This document shows positions 11,030-17,046 of a stretch of 17,208 nt of DNA, piece by piece. This DNA comes from a virus (lineage: Duplodnaviria; Heunggongvirae; Uroviricota; Caudoviricetes). The position numbers and the translations under genes were made by a program. The notes beneath the pieces were generated by a model. It searched no databases, had not been told where the DNA came from, and saw only the letters and a program-made list of their open reading frames with translations. The stretch is from IMG/VR virus record IMGVR_UViG_2698536369_000010; one strand, 5' to 3'. Position 1 is the stretch's first letter; each line of letters begins with the position of its first letter.

Positions 11030-12331
11030 TTAAATCCGAAGTGATGTGACTCTTCCGGTCGGTTTGACAATAGGGAATTGCTTAACGATGAAATAACCTC
11101 CGGCATCATTCGGGTGATCATTGCCAGATTTTTTATCAGGCTCCCCCTTATCATCCCAGACCTGTTGCTCCAGAGATTCGGCATATACCGGACAACGCTT
11201 CACATTAACTTTATAGCGACGCTCACCATTGGCATTGCAGAACATTGCATTCATTGAGTTAACGCGATCTTTTACTGGCGGGTTCGAGCTGTTCACCACA
11301 ACGTTAAAACCTGCCTGCTTAAGCTGGGCTATATCCGTCGTACTTGCGTTACTTGATTTTCTGGAATCTCCGGAAGCATCTGGATAAATATAAATCTCCC
11401 TCACTTTCCGGTAATCATGCCCGTCATACAGCCAGAAGCGTTCTTTAATGAGGCGGATCATATCCGGCGTATCGTAGGCATTGATGATTTCAGTTACCGC
11501 ACATGGAAGCCCCAAACGCAGCACATGGACGATTCCCGCCATCTTTCCAACGTTAAAATCCATCCCAATATAAATCGGCTCCCCTGGCTGCTCCACTTCT
11601 TCGCAATTATTCAGTTTCCGGTCAAACTGATGGTAAACAGTACCACTTGTCAGGTTAGTAAACCGTCCTAGAAGATAGGCTTTAATCAGCTCTGGAGGGT
11701 ATGATTCAAGAAGTGAAGGAATGTAATCTGCTGGCAGGTTCTTTTCATTATCGAAAGTAGATGCCTGCACCAGACCATACAGTGAGGCCAGCTCTGTTTT
11801 TTCACGCACGGCTTTAACAAACTGCTCGTAGACAAATTTGAATCCTTCCGGCGTGGTTGTAACGTCAATACCGTTGCGAAGTCCATCAATCTTATAACGC
11901 ATACGCGCAATTATCTTGCGCCACGCCGTTCTGGCTTTTTCCTTCGGCAAAATGTCCAGTTCATCCACCAGCGCATTACCAATTTTGAAACCGACGATCG
12001 TTTGTGGCTTCTCCATCGATCTGCAGATAGTGGTTCCCCGATACTGGCGTCCGTAATAAAAGTGAACCTCTTTATTTCCCTCATTAATTTTTACGTTCAA
12101 TCCCCAGTCAGCAGCAACTTCTTCCACTGTAGGGTAAAAAATATCGCGAATTTGGGGATACGTTGGCGCAAAATATCCCTGATTTATACCTGGATGCTCC
12201 CAAATCCCCTTGCATATGCCGCCACACCCAACCCATGTTTTGCCCGAGCCAAAACCAGCAATATAGGCTTTAAATTTATGGGGCATTGAAAGAAATCGCG
12301 CCTGAGGCACATTAAGCGTCGGAGAGATCAT
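11030..12331 (-). CDS. Terminase large subunit (about 433 aa from ATG at 12331)
   Basis: Walker A motif GFGSGKT near the N-terminus and acidic nuclease-type motifs (IGMDFN, IYPDASGDS) in the C-terminal half. AAGGAG SD 8 nt upstream of the preferred ATG; the track start is an upstream GTG. Confidence 0.9.
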   Translation of the reverse strand: MISPTLNVPQARFLSMPHKFKAYIAGFGSGKTWVGCGGICKGIWEHPGINQGYFAPTYPQIRDIFYPTVEEVAADWGLNVKINEGNKEVHFYYGRQYRGTTICRSMEKPQTIVGFKIGNALVDELDILPKEKARTAWRKIIARMRYKIDGLRNGIDVTTTPEGFKFVYEQFVKAVREKTELASLYGLVQASTFDNEKNLPADYIPSLLESYPPELIKAYLLGRFTNLTSGTVYHQFDRKLNNCEEVEQPGEPIYIGMDFNVGKMAGIVHVLRLGLPCAVTEIINAYDTPDMIRLIKERFWLYDGHDYRKVREIYIYPDASGDSRKSSNASTTDIAQLKQAGFNVVVNSSNPPVKDRVNSMNAMFCNANGERRYKVNVKRCPVYAESLEQQVWDDKGEPDKKSGNDHPNDAGGYFIVKQFPIVKPTGRVTSLRI

Positions 12332-13406
12332 CTTCATCACTCCTTAATCTGGCATCAACCACATTAATATTGATCGCCACAGGCTGGGGATGTTCATTAT
12401 CCTCCACCGTTTCGATCTCTTTGCGCAGCTTCTGGTTCTCTATTCTGCGCCGTTCAATTTCCAGTTCCTGTAGCCGCTTATCTGCACATAATGCCCCGCC
12501 AGCAGAAAGCAAACGCAACAATTCACGCCGGGCGGCAGCCTTATCCTCCAGCAGGATCTCAACACCGTATTTTCCGAGCTTTGACCCTGCATATAATTGC
12601 CGCGCATCCCCATCAAGCAGTGTGGTATCAGCCATATAAAGCTGTCCTGTTCCCTCACCGCAGCACTTCGGGCAATCAGGATTGGGTATGGCGTTATCAA
12701 CAAAGCCGAGGCCTCCATATTCCGGCTCGGGTTTACCATCTCTGGAGGCCTGTGCCGCAGCCTTATCGAATTCTGCAATATCACGCCACTGGTAGAGATG
12801 ATTCTCGCCCCAGCAATAACGGCAGTTAACACGGCGAAATTGTGCCAACTGATTGGGGTCGGCCTGGACAATGGCCATCAACTGGCTCACCAGTAAATCC
12901 AGGTCTGCGGTATAGCGTTTCTGGTACTGATTGCGGAAGTAGCTGATAGCACGATAAACCCTGGCATTTCTAAGCATACGGCTGGCGTTGCTGTTAGCTG
13001 TCGCACCTTGCCCCTCATAACCAGCCAGTCGGTATGCCTCTGTCGGCTTTTTCCCCTGAGCAACCAACATGGCGAATTTTGCCTGCTGGTCAGAAATACC
13101 GAATTCATCGGGGCAGAACGAAATTTCTTCCGTGTCCCCCTCAATCAGGAGTGCATCGGATACAGCCTTTTTTTTCTGAGATTTTCCGTTCTGCCTTTGC
13201 GCAGTCTGCGCAGTTTTTTTTCGCGCACTTTTTTGCGCAGTTTTGCGCATTTCTTTCTGCGCATTTTTCGGAGTTTTTTTGATGTAACGACGGGCTGTTG
13301 CGTAGTTCAGTCCCCTTGCTTCACACCATGCCACCGGAGATATACCGGAGCGGGTGTATTCAGCAATATACTCCTGCTGCAACGCCCCCCAGTCCGGTCT
13401 GCTCAT
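12312..13406 (-). CDS. Terminase small subunit, atypically long (364 aa)
   Basis: Directly upstream of and overlapping the large terminase. N-terminal HTH-like segment, a Lys/Ala/Gln-rich basic linker, a core resembling small-terminase signatures (ISDQQAKFAMLVAQGKKPTEAYRLAGY...ASRMLRNARV), and an inserted Cys cluster CRYCW...CPKCC. Confidence 0.75.
   Translation of the reverse strand: MSRPDWGALQQEYIAEYTRSGISPVAWCEARGLNYATARRYIKKTPKNAQKEMRKTAQKSARKKTAQTAQRQNGKSQKKKAVSDALLIEGDTEEISFCPDEFGISDQQAKFAMLVAQGKKPTEAYRLAGYEGQGATANSNASRMLRNARVYRAISYFRNQYQKRYTADLDLLVSQLMAIVQADPNQLAQFRRVNCRYCWGENHLYQWRDIAEFDKAAAQASRDGKPEPEYGGLGFVDNAIPNPDCPKCCGEGTGQLYMADTTLLDGDARQLYAGSKLGKYGVEILLEDKAAARRELLRLLSAGGALCADKRLQELEIERRRIENQKLRKEIETVEDNEHPQPVAININVVDARLRSDEDDLSDA
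13167..13280 (-). repeat. Phased array of six GCGCA motifs separated by T/A tracts, inside the terS 5' region
   Basis: Plus-strand GCGCA at 13198, 13207, 13222, 13234, 13244 and 13258, with T runs of 4-8 nt between them. Encodes the basic linker KNAQKEMRKTAQKSARKKTAQTAQ. Confidence 0.6.
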
Positions 13407-13409
13407 CAG

Positions 13410-13661
13410 TTAGTCCTGATTTTTATCCACCCTGAGTAGTTCGCGCAGAGCAAAGGCATCCCCTTTTCTGGCAAGCTTAAACAATGCCGCTCGTAACTCG
13501 GCTTCACCTTTCGCTCTGCCCTTACGGATGGCCGCATAAAAATCTGTCATTGCTTCCCGATTTTCTTTCAGTCGGTTCAGATCAACATCCAGAACGTCAG
13601 CGATTTGTTGTGCAGTCATCCGGCACGCTGCCAGAGACTCGACTTTCGAATACGGAATCAT
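13410..13661 (-). CDS. Small hypothetical protein with HTH-like N-terminus (83 aa)
   Basis: Ends 3 nt before the terS start. GGGGGTG SD upstream of the ATG at 13659-13661. Overlaps the 3' end of the upstream gene by 65 nt in another frame. Confidence 0.4.
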   Translation of the reverse strand: MIPYSKVESLAACRMTAQQIADVLDVDLNRLKENREAMTDFYAAIRKGRAKGEAELRAALFKLARKGDAFALRELLRVDKNQD

Positions 13662-14529
13662 TTGTCACCCCCATTGATATGCAGGGTGTCTTCTTCCTGT
13701 ATTTTTCGTGAAGGATTTTTACTGCAGCGTTGTTCCAGGTGACCTGATGGTGAATGCGTTTATGGCTGGCACCCATCAGTGAGATTTTTACGCACGACGG
13801 CGAATACATGACGGAGTAAAAACTTTTAACGTAGGTTCCGGAATCCAGATACAGCTCGGTCATTCCGCCGCTGTTTTTCTGCGTCTGTTTCTGCCCTAAC
13901 TGGACAGCACCGATCGTCATAAACAATTCACCACAGCGACCGAGATTCGTGTACGTATTCACATCCTCGTTAATGCGCCCCATGAATGAGAACGGTCGAT
14001 CAACCGAACAGATAAAGCTGTTCATTGCCTTGCGTTTCACCCACGAAGCATGGCCGCCATTGTCACCAAGAAAATCCCCGCCCTGCGACATAGCGATGGA
14101 AAGCGCGGGTATTGATTCGTAATACGCCAGCATTTCAGAAAGGATCGCATCCAGTTTCCTTATCGGGAAATAGGCCTGGTCATAGTTGCGATCCACCCGA
14201 AACTGGAACTCGTGATAATCATCATCGAGCTGAATGAAGTATTTACACCCGACCAGTTTTGCCAGGTCGAAACAGGCATTACGGGCGTAAAAAATTGAGC
14301 GGCGATCACCAAAATTATCGGCTTCGTCAAAACGACTGGCAATATCGGCTTTGGAAAATACCAGCACCTGTTCACCAAATTCAGCCATGTACTGATGCCG
14401 TGTCTTATCTTCATCATCAACAACGATAAAAATTTTCCCGGTATAGCCAGCACGACGCAACGTCCGGTAAGTCAGAACTTTGTCCGGTCGCCCGTGAGTC
14501 AGAATAAAGGCGCAAAAATCATCACGCAT
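13597..14529 (-). CDS. Uncharacterized protein with a GT-A-like glycosyltransferase signature (about 310 aa from ATG at 14529)
   Basis: Hydrophobic strand FCAFILTHGRPD, then KIFIVVDDED, then about 60 aa later YFIQLDDDY: the spacing of a GT-A Rossmann-like fold with a DxD motif. Preferred ATG overlaps the ParB-like stop (ATGCGTGA) and follows GGAGGAGGAGG. No predicted membrane segments. Confidence 0.5.
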   Translation of the reverse strand: MRDDFCAFILTHGRPDKVLTYRTLRRAGYTGKIFIVVDDEDKTRHQYMAEFGEQVLVFSKADIASRFDEADNFGDRRSIFYARNACFDLAKLVGCKYFIQLDDDYHEFQFRVDRNYDQAYFPIRKLDAILSEMLAYYESIPALSIAMSQGGDFLGDNGGHASWVKRKAMNSFICSVDRPFSFMGRINEDVNTYTNLGRCGELFMTIGAVQLGQKQTQKNSGGMTELYLDSGTYVKSFYSVMYSPSCVKISLMGASHKRIHHQVTWNNAAVKILHEKYRKKTPCISMGVTNDSVFESRVSGSVPDDCTTNR

Positions 14530-15313
14530 ATTCCTCCTCCTCCCCGCCATGCATGATCTCCACCATGCGCTGCGTCATTCGGACAAATCCATTTTCAATA
14601 GCCTGCTGATAATCAATGATCACCAGCGCCGACTCCTCGAAAAGGCACTGAATTTCAGCGGGGGCATGAGCGTAATAGTCCGCAATTCTGCTGAAATTAA
14701 ACACTGTGTGACGTTCTGCCGCACACAGGAGGAATTTCTCAATATCAGGATCAAGGGACGCCGAACGTATCCGGCTGATCAGCTCCTGAGTTTTCGTATC
14801 GTCGTACAGTTCACTGATATCCGGTTTACCGCCCGACGGCTCATAAACAGGCGTATCAATTTTCGTCGTATACGGCTCCTCCTCATTTCCTGTACCGGGC
14901 AAAACATCCGTCAACAGTTCATCAATTTCTGTCGGGATGAAGCCTGTCAGGGAGACATCAAAATCAGCATTGATTAGGTCCGACAGCTCCATCCGCAACA
15001 GATCTTCATCCCAGCCAGCATTCATCGGCAGGCGATTATCTGCCAGGCGGTACGCCTTTTTCTGCTCATCCGTCAGGCCAGACAGAACAATGACCGGAAC
15101 AGAATCCATTTTGAGCATTTCAGCCGCCATAACACGACCGTGACCCGCAATAATTTCGCCCTTTTCGTCAATCAGCACCGGATTAGTCCAGCCGAATTGC
15201 TTAATACTTTCTACCAGTTGTGCCACCTGCTCAGTACTGTGCGTCCTGGCATTGTGCGCATACGGTGACAATTCTTGTAATGGGCGATAGACTATCTTTA
15301 ATTTCTCGCTCAT
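14522..15313 (-). CDS. ParB/Srx-like nuclease-domain protein (263 aa)
   Basis: N-terminus (YRPLQELSPYAHNARTHSTEQVAQLVESIKQFGWTNPVLIDEKGEIIAGHGRVMAAEMLKMDSVPVIVL) matches the ParB N-terminal pattern seen fused to phage DNA methyltransferases, including the DVSLTGF linker. The C-terminal 150 aa are acidic with no methyltransferase motifs. Position matches ynaK of Rac but identity was not verified. Confidence 0.75.
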   Translation of the reverse strand: MSEKLKIVYRPLQELSPYAHNARTHSTEQVAQLVESIKQFGWTNPVLIDEKGEIIAGHGRVMAAEMLKMDSVPVIVLSGLTDEQKKAYRLADNRLPMNAGWDEDLLRMELSDLINADFDVSLTGFIPTEIDELLTDVLPGTGNEEEPYTTKIDTPVYEPSGGKPDISELYDDTKTQELISRIRSASLDPDIEKFLLCAAERHTVFNFSRIADYYAHAPAEIQCLFEESALVIIDYQQAIENGFVRMTQRMVEIMHGGEEEEYA

Positions 15314-15329: not shown

Positions 15330-15368
15330 AATAAAACGCACCCCAGCAGCCAGTGCTACTGGGGGCGG
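15330..15368 (-). terminator. Intrinsic terminator downstream of trkG
   Basis: Minus strand CGC-CCCCAGTAGC-ACTG-GCTGCTGGGG-(U)GCG-TTTTATT: about 13-bp G:C-rich stem with one G.U and one bulge, then a U-tract. The plus-strand version has a C-A mismatch, favouring minus-strand function. Confidence 0.6.
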
Positions 15369-15450: not shown

Positions 15451-16908
15451 TTAGGAGCGCCAAAAAAAACCTGAAAACAATATAATAACAGGATAAATTT
15501 CAAGGCGACCAAGAATCATAGCTATGCACATTAAATATTTTGCAATGTCATTAAGCACTCCGAATGACGATGCAGTAGCCCCAAAACCTAATCCCATATT
15601 ATTAATACATGCAGCCACTGTTGCAAATGATGTAAGAAAATCATATCCCATACCATTTAACACCAGTATAAAAAACACCGTGAAGAGAGTATAAAGAAAA
15701 AAGAAACTCCATACAGACCTCATTACACGATCTGTAACTATCTTCCCTCCTACATTTACACTTAACAACGCTCTGGGATGAGAAAGTTGATTTATCTCGT
15801 GTTTGCTTTGTTTGAAAAGTATAAGAAATCGAAGTGACTTAATTCCACCACAGGTTGAACCGATACATCCCCCAAAGAAACTTGACAACAGCAAAAACAC
15901 TATCGTGTGCGTGGGCCAGTTTGCATAATCCTGCGTAGCTAAACCATTATCAGTGAGCATGGAGCTGGCAAGAAAAAACGAATGAATAAAACTTCCATGC
16001 AAGTCATACATACCTATATGCCAGACCTGGAAAGAGGTAACAATGATCACCCCTAAGGCTATTAACAGAAAGAAACGAAGTTCAATATCTCTGATTAAAG
16101 GTTTTATCGTTTTTCTGCTAATAACAATATACCAAAGAGTGAAGTTGAAAGCCGATAGCAGGGAAAAAGAACCAGCCACCAGCTCAACCAAATAGTTATT
16201 AAAATATCCGATACTCTCGCTATGAGTTGAGAAACCACCAAGCGAAACTGTGGAAATCCCGTGACAAATAGCATCAAACAAAGGCATTCCTGCAAGTCTA
16301 TAACAGACAATACAAGCAATACCTAATAAAGAATAAGTTATCCACAGTGTCCGTGACGTATCGGCCAGGCGGGGAGTGAGTTTGTCATCCTTAAATGGCC
16401 CCGGCATTTCTGACTGATAAAGCTTTGCACCACCAATACCCAATAATGGCAATACTGCAACCGCCAGAACAATAACTCCTAAACCACCTATAAAATTTAA
16501 CTGTGACCGATAGTACAAATATGCCCGAGGTAATGAACTAACATCATCAATTACAGTTGCTCCTGTTGTTGTTATTCCAGAAACCCCTTCAAACAGAGCA
16601 TCAATGAACGTTAAATTAAGTTCTGAGTCAATCCATAAAGGGAATGCACTAATAACAGAAAACAAAATCCAAAACATTACAATTATAATAAACCCATCAC
16701 GGGTACGTAATTGAATGCCAGATTTCTTAGTTGTATACCACGCTCCGCCACCAATGCAAAAAAATATAACGAAAGTTATAAAGAAAACGAACAGGCTTTT
16801 TTCTTTATAAAACAATGCTACAACCATTGGTGGCAACATTGAAAGACTATAGAGCCAAACCAGGAACCCACACATATGAGTAACAACTCTTACATGAGAT
16901 GTATTCAT
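15451..16908 (-). CDS. trkG: Trk-family potassium uptake membrane protein TrkG (485 aa from ATG at 16908)
   Basis: Multi-pass membrane protein with repeated pore-type segments; recognised as TrkG, which lies in the Rac prophage of E. coli K-12 next to the Rz/Rz1 genes. Clearly AT-rich compared with neighbours. An upstream in-frame TTG (16926) with an AAGGTGG SD would give 491 aa. Confidence 0.9.
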   Translation of the reverse strand: MNTSHVRVVTHMCGFLVWLYSLSMLPPMVVALFYKEKSLFVFFITFVIFFCIGGGAWYTTKKSGIQLRTRDGFIIIVMFWILFSVISAFPLWIDSELNLTFIDALFEGVSGITTTGATVIDDVSSLPRAYLYYRSQLNFIGGLGVIVLAVAVLPLLGIGGAKLYQSEMPGPFKDDKLTPRLADTSRTLWITYSLLGIACIVCYRLAGMPLFDAICHGISTVSLGGFSTHSESIGYFNNYLVELVAGSFSLLSAFNFTLWYIVISRKTIKPLIRDIELRFFLLIALGVIIVTSFQVWHIGMYDLHGSFIHSFFLASSMLTDNGLATQDYANWPTHTIVFLLLSSFFGGCIGSTCGGIKSLRFLILFKQSKHEINQLSHPRALLSVNVGGKIVTDRVMRSVWSFFFLYTLFTVFFILVLNGMGYDFLTSFATVAACINNMGLGFGATASSFGVLNDIAKYLMCIAMILGRLEIYPVIILFSGFFWRS

Positions 16909-17046
16909 ATCTAAATATTCTTTCAATTATAACCACCTTGCTGCAATATTATGATTATACTGTATAAAATTTAACTCCTCTTAGATCTTACTTCACTGTT
17001 CCTTATGAAACAATCATCAAAATGAATCATATTGTAGTTAAGATTT

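Follow-up and report, generated by a model that had tools for sequence, protein, structure and literature searches.

A ParB-like protein and a TAGT-family glycosyltransferase form a conserved gene pair in Rac prophages and other viruses: a candidate DNA glycosylation module

Between the trkG gene and the terminase genes of a Rac prophage lies a pair of overlapping genes that encode a ParB-like protein and a putative glycosyltransferase, a candidate module for the glycosylation of DNA. The pair was analysed in a window of 17,208 nucleotides (the whole stretch of DNA considered here) from a tailed virus of the Caudoviricetes, IMG/VR record IMGVR_UViG_2698536369_000010. Judged by the neighbouring genes in a representative genome, the source of the window is a full-length Escherichia coli Rac prophage. 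All genes of the region are on the minus strand. An earlier sequence-only reading had described a gene pair at 13597-15313 between a moron and the terminase, and the annotation bears this placement out: TrkH/TrkG is encoded upstream and the terminase subunits downstream.

The upstream gene (14522..15313) encodes the partner protein, which is E. coli YnaK in full length, with 263 amino acid residues and an isoelectric point (pI) of 4.5. It was recognised from the list of open reading frames (ORFs) and from Pfam, PHROG and RefSeq. Its first part, residues 1-141 (14891..15313), is a ParB/Srx nucleotide-binding domain with a helical segment, matched by phrog_498 and PADLOC MTase_II. Its second part, residues ~145-255 (14525..14890), is a linker motif followed by a helical C-terminal domain, delimited by conservation and by pairing with the transferase. 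The downstream gene (13597..14529) encodes a soluble protein of 310 residues and pI 8.0, assigned to the TET-associated glycosyltransferase (TAGT) family of GT-A enzymes by Pfam PF20691 and phrog_842. Each of the two proteins has more than 7,900 database homologues, so both ORFs are real genes and not chance reading frames.

Read from its first ATG, the transferase ORF spans 13597..14550 and codes for 317 residues. The alignment of homologues places the true start at MRDDF, with the ATG at 14529, which gives the 310 residues that had been proposed. Direct reading of the sequence gives the junction of the two genes as GGGGAGGAGGAGGAATATGCGTGA. With the last letter of the partner gene's stop codon TGA at 14522 and the first letter of the transferase ATG at 14529, the two genes overlap by 8 nucleotides, ATGCGTGA (14522-14529). 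Copies of GGAGG stand 3-6 nucleotides 5' of this ATG, and the Shine-Dalgarno run GGGGAGGAGGAGGAA occupies 14531-14545. The translational-coupling junction (14522..14545, minus strand) thus has the short overlap and the strong ribosome-binding site that had been claimed for it. A tight overlap or abutment of the two genes is likewise found in the annotated phages c5, HHTV-2, NTR1 and pv27.

The composition of the module is that of the rest of the phage, again as first described. Its content of guanine and cytosine (GC) is 0.48-0.49 over 13501-15000, compared with 0.34-0.40 in the upstream trkG region and 0.45-0.52 in the remaining phage. A 2.3-kb region used as query found matches in 1,619 of 5,426 complete E. 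coli genomes, with at least 80% query coverage in 867; identity over the best place was at least 95% in 1,608 of the 1,623 matching records. Some lysogens carry a decayed partner gene: E. coli AR_0077 (L001 21760-22017) has a frameshifted pseudogene, and in several strains an IS3-family element splits the gene. E. coli K-12 has lost the transferase. The RefSeq name ynaK is given to intact copies and fragments alike.

The transferase matches the TAGT profile PF20691 with 121.5 bits, against a cut-off of 27.5 (E 6e-35), over positions 4-205 of 205, and it matches phrog_842 at 1.5e-103. PF20691 is present in every listed homologue. The structure model made with AlphaFold2 (AF2) is confident at residues 1-150, where the predicted local distance difference test (pLDDT) is 85-96; the alignments behind the transferase and partner models were shallow, with 14 and 18 sequences of at least 54% identity. 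Among PDB structures, Foldseek matches the transferase model to SpsA, SunS and the chondroitin polymerase K4CP at 5e-5 to 2e-4, and glycogenin is also found among the GT-A fold matches. Viral TAGT models in BFVD match it at 3e-19. A profile search of PDB gave nothing significant for the transferase, and neither NCBIfam nor PADLOC has a family for it. There is no hydrophobic segment (the maximum 19-residue Kyte-Doolittle score is 1.08), which marks the protein as soluble. A nucleotide-sugar transferase fold had been predicted, and an unrelated fold was not seen. The profile and fold matches together show the protein to be a nucleotide-sugar-dependent GT-A enzyme of the TAGT family.

The predicted active site is well conserved. 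In 90 distinct transferase sequences, R14, D102-D103-D104 and E188-D189 are conserved in at least 99%, and D38, D41 and H260-H261 are also essentially invariant; a DED stands at residues 39-41. The soluble GT-A-like protein with a DDD motif that had been described is therefore recovered, with the motif at 102-104. The pattern R...DDD...ED[Y/F] is the active-site signature of phage GT-A DNA glycosyltransferases and of the base-J glucosyltransferase (bioRxiv 10.1101/2023.12.21.572611). The transferase fits R...DDD...ED, with valine instead of tyrosine or phenylalanine at the position after ED.

PHROG gives the transferase the product name beta-glucosyl-HMC-alpha-glucosyltransferase. This name is not transferable, because the T4-like homologues are just 23-26% identical. 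The Escherichia transferase also has a C-terminal extension of about 22 residues that is absent in all other homologues, most of which have 283-294 residues. The extension overlaps the next ORF (13410-13661) by 65 nucleotides (13597-13661), and may be the result of a lost stop codon.

In the AF2 model, the partner protein consists of a domain at residues 1-95, helices at 103-134, a low-confidence linker at 136-161, helices at 166-254 and a short acidic end. Residues 1-95 match Pfam ParB_N (PF02195) with 29.3 bits, against a cut-off of 26.3 (E 8.8e-7), and the protein matches phrog_620 at 1.7e-90. RefSeq labels it "ynaK: ParB/Srx family N-terminal domain-containing protein". Profile matches in PDB are to Noc and ParB at 4e-5, and Foldseek matches are to Noc/ParB/KorB/PadC at 1e-6. 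The ParB/Srx fold that had been expected is thus found by Pfam, by the PDB profiles and by Foldseek.

The domain is also of the type carried by phage methyltransferases, as had been stated. Residues 3-141 match positions 31-171 of 633 in phrog_498 "DNA methyltransferase" at E 8.9e-51, and residues 10-144 match positions 13-151 of 436 in PADLOC MTase_II at E 1.7e-38. A tblastn search with the ParB domain found 495 phage records, many with a methylase annotation. By these alignments, residues 1-141 are the module found N-terminal in phage DNA methyltransferases. No methyltransferase Pfam family was found in the partner, and its MTase_II match is confined to residues 10-144.

Aligned to Spo0J/ParB, the partner has N21 opposite a glutamine, R23 opposite an arginine and N93 opposite an asparagine, while AGHGR aligns to AGERR. 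Its Box II is therefore GHGR (G57 H58 G59 R60). The Box II arginine R60 and the Box III asparagine N93, which are predicted nucleotide-binding residues, are invariant. The glutamate that ParB uses for the hydrolysis of cytidine triphosphate (CTP) is replaced by His58, and the first Box II arginine by Gly59.

RefSeq and GenBank labels suggest a partition ParB or a transcriptional regulator, a candidate that was rejected. Pfam and NCBIfam profiles found no helix-turn-helix or other domain beyond ParB_N in the partner, and its match to TIGR00180 has 38 bits, under the cut-off of 58. No ParA is annotated in the 42-kb Rac prophage stretch examined. With no helix-turn-helix domain detected and no ParA annotated in that stretch, the partner is not taken for a partition protein.

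The nearest relatives of the ParB domain (58-61% identity) are proteins of about 200 residues without the conserved C-terminal domain or a transferase. Each is the first gene ahead of the terminase, in Yersinia phage vB_YpM_44 (L185 313-903) and Vibrio phage XM1 (L186 153-755). Several phages have a second, separate ParB-domain protein near the pair (L090 8875-9447, L087 5513-6046, L115 8498-9541, L144 4948-6126). Those of 347 and 392 residues may be methyltransferase fusions.

The part of the partner beyond residue 141 had been described as an acidic tail with no methyltransferase motifs. The second half of this description stands, since no methyltransferase family is found there; the first does not, since residues ~145-255 form a conserved domain and the acidic tail proper is only the last ~8 residues, GGEEEEYA. 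The linker carries the motif Y148-T-x-K-I-x-x-P155-x-Y157-E-P, with the general form Y-[ST]-x5-P-x-Y. This segment has a pLDDT below 50 and is predicted to be disordered. In the helical domain (~166-254), R201, A211, Y214, E226, D234, A238 and G242 are invariant or near-invariant. The C-terminal domain (~110-115 residues) has no Pfam, NCBIfam or PDB match, profile search included, and its low-confidence model yielded no fold assignment. Used alone as a query, it found 1,194 clusters at 50% identity, in whose proteins, of about 130-200 or 250-310 residues, it invariably stands at the C-terminus. The idea of a dioxygenase hidden in this domain was also rejected: with about 110 residues and an all-helical structure, it is too small for a double-stranded beta-helix.

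The association of the two genes reaches far beyond enterobacteria. In a genome scan, a partner ORF lies directly upstream of the transferase, on the same strand, in 19 of 19 loci. These come from Enterobacterales, Thiotrichales, Hyphomonadaceae, Prosthecochloris, Bacteroidales, Lachnospiraceae/Eubacteriales and Saccharibacteria, and so from Proteobacteria, Chlorobi, Bacteroidota, Firmicutes and Saccharibacteria. The same arrangement is found in Lactobacillus phage c5 (ORF1/ORF2, right behind cos), the haloarchaeal virus HHTV-2 (genes 21/22), Nocardia phage NTR1 (Orf1-Orf2-TerL) and Vibrio phage pv27. It occurs even in a Porphyromonas phage whose transferase is 27% identical. The C-terminal domain and a TAGT gene are adjacent in 23 of 23 diverse genomes and phages.

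Two further sets of viral loci give the same result. Both were seeded with distant sequences, the window protein having yielded just near-identical E. coli prophages. When transferases were the seeds, an adjacent ORF with the C-terminal domain was found in 79 of 80 loci, and the exception ends at a contig edge. When C-terminal domains were the seeds, a TAGT gene followed immediately downstream in 80 of 80. A TAGT transferase is thus the enzyme that adjoins the partner in all 183 loci examined, bar the one contig-end case. The sequence-only reading had proposed to check whether the pairing with ParB-like genes is conserved. The pairing itself is confirmed by these counts, but the constant partner of the transferase is the C-terminal domain rather than the ParB domain. 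A partner of 120-150 residues with only the C-terminal domain is found in about 17 of the transferase-seeded loci, in 4 of the domain-seeded loci and in pv27. Since such partners exist, the ParB domain is dispensable.

If the ParB domain is written as N, the C-terminal domain as C and the glycosyltransferase as G, other arrangements can be listed as C-G, G-C-G, C-G-C-G, G-C, a split N|C, C-G-G, N-C-G-G(-G) and one in-frame N-C-G fusion. The fusion is a single ORF of 522 residues that reads through all three parts in frame (L125 6287-7855, IMG/VR UViG_3300045988_163343). Either it is genuine or a sequencing frameshift has joined the genes, which in close relatives are separate and overlap.

The three parts are not equally conserved. 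Mean pairwise identity is lowest in the ParB domain (0.31) and rises to 0.46 in the C-terminal domain and 0.50 in the transferase. Nearly all pairs combine an acidic partner (pI 4.1-5.2) with a basic transferase (pI 8-9.4). The charges are swapped in a Lachnospiraceae locus (L095 7607-8858) and its relatives L105-L107, where the partner has a pI of 8.9 and the transferase 6.4. The complementary charges, together with the higher conservation of the C-terminal domain and the transferase, suggest a direct interaction between the two proteins.

An interaction of this kind could also be that of an enzyme with its substrate. In this explanation, the transferase O-glycosylates the invariant tyrosine, threonine or serine of the linker motif Y-[ST]-x-K-I-x-x-P-x-Y-E-P, and the resulting glycoprotein, whether or not it has a ParB domain, performs the real function. 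The only universally conserved components are the transferase and a small acidic protein in which Y148, P155 and Y157 are among the most invariant residues, and an enzyme that comes with its own substrate would have no need of a further gene. Precedents exist as well. GREB1, an animal member of the TAGT family, is a protein O-GlcNAc transferase acting on threonine and serine (PMC7968844), and glycogenin-type GT-A enzymes, which glycosylate tyrosine, are among the fold matches. However, the helical domain is as conserved as the motif, which fits a folded subunit better than an acceptor peptide. The explanation also gives no obvious reason for the DNA-centred contexts of the pair (terminase genes, or PolA and the clamp) or for a ParB domain of the methyltransferase type, and the G-C-G and tandem-transferase arrangements resemble the stepwise building of a glycan on a shared target. 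A partner that serves as the substrate is thus rather unlikely.

The surroundings of the pair follow its domain content. Pairs with a ParB-bearing partner are mostly found ahead of terminase genes, and in NTR1 the pair directly abuts the large terminase subunit. In phages of about 66 kb, the class with only the C-terminal domain has the gene order PolA, pair, beta clamp, clamp loader. In pv27, the pair is surrounded by genes for a primase, an exonuclease and a helicase. The pair is embedded solely in modules for DNA replication or packaging. Some loci also contain sugar chemistry, in the form of a second or third transferase or genes for an NAD-epimerase or a GDP-mannose dehydratase. A metagenome-assembled genome of Hyphomonadaceae has, behind the partner, a 564-residue fusion of a TAGT and a class I S-adenosylmethionine-dependent methyltransferase (L099 3581-5272), followed by a second TAGT gene (L099 5190-6161). 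This arrangement suggests a methylated or multi-sugar product.

The position beside the terminase raises the alternative that the pair is an accessory of packaging. The ParB-like protein would then nick or mark DNA, or aid site recognition by the terminase, and the transferase would be secondary or would modify a packaging protein. In Rac, in c5, in the Porphyromonas phage and in most viral loci, the pair does stand immediately ahead of the terminase subunits, and its abutment on the large subunit in NTR1 fits as well. The nearest relatives of the ParB domain, of about 200 residues, fill the same slot without a transferase. Likewise, Bce_0392 of B. cereus, a ParB domain fused to an adenine methylase, has a reported nicking activity (PMC5512222). 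Yet some replication modules far from any terminase contain the C-terminal domain and the transferase with no ParB domain. A packaging factor should moreover co-evolve with its terminases, which are of very different types (Terminase_3, Terminase_6, TerL_ATPase), whereas the transferase remains about 50% identical across phyla. A packaging accessory is accordingly given a low probability.

Glycosylation of phage DNA usually brings to mind hydroxymethylated bases, and a source for them was looked for. The annotation of the 42-kb Rac stretch examined, which runs from recT to lom and stops short of the integrase end and the tail-fibre end, contains no TET/JBP or thymidylate-synthase-like gene. 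The complete 31.8-kb phage c5 has no annotated enzyme that produces hydroxymethyl-pyrimidines, and its largest unassigned ORF, of 208 residues, has no Pfam match. Among the families listed for about 365 neighbour proteins, there is no TET/JBP or thymidylate-synthase family; each survey covers the 25 commonest families, so that a rare TET/JBP gene in single loci is possible. Because no supplier of hydroxymethyl-pyrimidines is annotated in the Rac stretch or in complete small phages with the pair, the acceptor is probably not 5-hydroxymethylcytosine (5hmC) or 5-hydroxymethyluracil (5hmU).

It may still be asked whether the transferase is an ordinary hydroxymethyl-pyrimidine glycosyltransferase that receives 5hmC or 5hmU from an unrecognised enzyme elsewhere in the phage or the host. 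The Pfam and PHROG labels (TET-associated; beta-glucosyl-HMC-alpha-glucosyltransferase) point that way. Moreover, glycosyltransferases, ParBs and terminases are the commonest neighbours of phage dioxygenases, and thousands of divergent dioxygenase-like sequences have no Pfam annotation (PMC13229309). Against this stand the missing suppliers in the Rac stretch and among the neighbour families. In the complete c5 genome, no unassigned ORF is larger than the one of 208 residues. The TAGTs of T-even type, found in 5hmC phages, have only the low identity of 23-26% and no partner gene. A hidden hydroxymethylation step is therefore very unlikely.

From E. coli, the identity of the transferase is about 50% to Bacteroides and 41% to a haloarchaeal virus. 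This conservation argues for a universal acceptor such as DNA, and not for unrelated virion proteins. If the target is neither DNA nor the partner, the candidates are small molecules or nucleotides (an immune signal or a nucleotide pool, for instance), RNA, and proteins of the virion or the host; the function would then lie in anti-defence or in decoration of the virion. The high conservation across hosts fits a universal metabolite as well as it fits DNA, and no hydroxymethyl base is available in the Rac stretch or in c5. The ParB/Srx folds include small-molecule kinases, and the serine kinase SerK and sulfiredoxin are among the fold matches. Capsid and tail proteins, however, are unrelated across phages and fit poorly with a transferase identity of about 50% across phyla. 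The protein is soluble and has no membrane segment, which argues against modification of O-antigen or teichoic acid. The characterised phage relatives in the TAGT family that are cited here all act on DNA, and the neighbours are DNA-handling genes. Such other targets are improbable, to about the same degree as a partner that is itself glycosylated. A moron for O-antigen or cell-wall glycosylation was considered separately and rejected, given the soluble protein, the normal GC content, the late-operon position and the DNA-type partner.

The preferred reading is that the pair is a two-component module for post-replicative DNA glycosylation without a hydroxymethyl-pyrimidine step, which has about an even chance of being correct. 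The two genes would encode a glycosylation machine that acts on the double-stranded DNA of the phage after its replication and before its packaging. The acidic C-terminal domain would bind the basic transferase as an activating or targeting subunit, by means of the invariant Y-[ST]-x5-P-x-Y motif together with the helical domain. In Rac, the ParB/Srx domain would be a device gated by nucleoside triphosphates (NTPs) that holds the enzyme on duplex DNA, by analogy with the ParBs of thymine dioxygenases. Where the ParB domain is missing, the replisome may provide the tethering. The benefit would be the shielding of progeny DNA from host nucleases. A function in DNA or virion modification, or in anti-restriction, had already been proposed for the pair; it is inferred from the family and the gene context, and a virion-protein target is the weaker half of that alternative.

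A more specific form of the preferred reading can be offered as a tentative possibility. Here the pair would be a heterodimeric enzyme that adds sugar to unmodified DNA, at a base nitrogen or oxygen, at the backbone or at the ends, with no hydroxymethyl-pyrimidine intermediate. A nucleotide switch of the ParB type, or the replisome, would hold this enzyme on duplex DNA.

Several points weigh against DNA glycosylation by the pair. Canonical DNA bases carry no hydroxyl group, and we know of no glycosylation of unmodified DNA by a GT-A enzyme. The proposal is drawn from family membership and gene context, and the system is known here from its genes. The bounds of the Rac stretch and of the neighbour surveys, given above, leave room for a supplier. 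AF2 confidence is low for transferase residues 216-310 and for the C-terminal domain of the partner. The invariant tyrosine/threonine motif lies in a predicted disordered linker, as expected of an acceptor site in a protein, and GREB1 is a family member with protein acceptors. The ParB domain may serve packaging, because its nearest relatives precede terminases without a transferase. Finally, in the dioxygenase systems, mutants of the putative NTP-binding residues of the ParB had little effect (PMC13229309).

The pair in the window is followed by packaging genes. Between the transferase and the small terminase subunit lies a small ORF of 83 residues (13410..13661, minus strand), given in RefSeq as a hypothetical protein of 69 residues. 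It has a partial match to phrog_309 "terminase small subunit" at 8e-23, aligning to the middle of that family (positions 145-218 of 319). Directly downstream are the small terminase subunit (12312..13406) and the large subunit (11030..12340), both on the minus strand; together they are recognised by Pfam Terminase_2, Terminase_6N and Terminase_6C and by phrog_51. In the small subunit, of 364 residues, the Terminase_2 match is limited to residues 122-316. The function of the small terminase may be split or extended in the Rac phage.

On the other side lies the trkG moron (15451..16926, minus strand), identified by Pfam TrkH at 1e-144 and by its GC content of 0.34-0.40. The terminator scan found a strong terminator-like hairpin on the minus strand (15341-15364) with a 10-bp stem, 7 GC pairs and a following T-run, between the stop of trkG and the start of the partner gene. 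This is presumably the moron's own terminator. Transcription of the pair and the terminase in the late phase would need read-through of it. In the representative genome, the neighbours include recT, recE, racC, kilR, sieB, ydaS-V, the lysis cassette, trkG, ynaK, the terminase and the structural genes. Between its replication and Q-like regions, one Rac variant (L001 28136-31635) has what may be a separate island for modification or defence, with genes for a DNA cytosine methyltransferase, an ATP-binding protein and an O-methyltransferase.

Neither fold is new, and DNA modification with the help of a ParB is likewise known as a general idea. What appears to be new is that the partner domain is obligate and does not depend on the ParB domain, that the hydroxymethylation step is missing, and that the distribution is so broad. 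A large share of the orphan TAGT transferases of phages become one coherent two-gene unit. Phage DNA glycosylation is otherwise known solely on hydroxymethylated or hydroxylated pyrimidines. Thus, if the target is DNA, the chemistry would be new, with a bearing on restriction evasion, on host range in phage therapy, and on enzymatic tools for DNA labelling and sequencing. If unmodified DNA is the acceptor, the DNA modification would be chemically new and widespread: it would occur in about one in six complete E. coli genomes, in a haloarchaeal virus, and across temperate phages from six or more bacterial phyla. The view now emerging of ParB-like proteins as general adaptors for DNA-modifying enzymes would extend to a second enzyme class. 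Because the module is present in E. coli Rac prophages, it is open to standard genetics and mass spectrometry.

Comparison with known systems starts from the GT-A DNA glycosyltransferases of the TAGT family in phage clusters for cytosine and thymine hypermodification (PMC8256090; bioRxiv 10.1101/2023.12.21.572611). They share with the Rac transferase the Pfam family, the GT-A fold and the R...DDD...ED motif. Like the Rac pair, they are encoded by phages, often near ParB and terminase genes, and, as in some loci of the pair, relatives may have tandem transferases and sugar epimerases. Their substrates are 5hmC, made by an adjacent C5-methyltransferase and a TET-like dioxygenase, or hydroxymethyl bases made by thymidylate-synthase homologues. 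In the Rac stretch and in phage c5, in contrast, no such supplier is annotated, and the Rac clade has an obligate partner domain that is absent from the descriptions of Burke 2021 and Pyle 2024. About 65% of transferase-bearing contigs have no dioxygenase or thymidylate-synthase neighbour and were rated "less likely" DNA modifiers (bioRxiv 10.1101/2023.12.21.572611). Solitary TAGT homologues of undefined function have been reported in 288 of 753 phage genomes (NAR 2026, PMC13216743), a group that probably includes the clade of the Rac pair. The beta-glucosyl-HMC-alpha-glucosyltransferase of T2/T6, the source of the PHROG label, is in the same Pfam family; it adds a second glucose to glucosyl-5hmC in genomes that contain 5hmC (PMC13216743).

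The closest parallel for the partner is found in a subclass of phage thymine dioxygenases, which ParB-like proteins activate specifically on double-stranded DNA (O'Toole et al. 2026, PMC13229309). For 5mYOX176/ParB176, both the N- and C-terminal domains of the ParB are needed, on double-stranded DNA only. Around dioxygenase-seeded contigs, the commonest neighbours are glycosyltransferases (31%), ParB (27%) and terminases (19%; PMC13229309). These activators and the Rac partner are alike in their described layout: a nucleotide-binding domain is followed by a helical segment, then by an unstructured linker and a C-terminal domain, and a DNA-binding domain is lacking. The client of the activators is a dioxygenase, whereas that of the Rac partner is a glycosyltransferase. 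Unlike in the ParB176 system, the Rac-type C-terminal domain alone can accompany the enzyme, as in the C-G loci. No literature was found that joins ParB, a glycosyltransferase and DNA glycosylation; the founding TAGT paper, Iyer et al. 2013, is outside this comparison.

Fusions of ParB with DNA methyltransferases have been catalogued in prophages, with no mention of glycosyltransferases (Kaljevic et al. 2025, PMC12704722). Their N-termini are homologous to residues 1-141 of the partner (30-46% identity), and they occupy similar slots in temperate phages. The Rac partner has no methyltransferase domain and carries an adaptor-like domain instead, and its enzyme, unlike that of the fusions, is a separate, translationally coupled polypeptide. 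Finally, the partition ParBs Spo0J, Noc and KorB have the same N-terminal fold as the partner, in which the equivalents of R60 and N93 are kept. They differ from it in Box II, where GERR is changed to GHGR, in the helix-turn-helix domain, which was not detected in the partner, and in ParA, which is not annotated in the prophage stretch examined.

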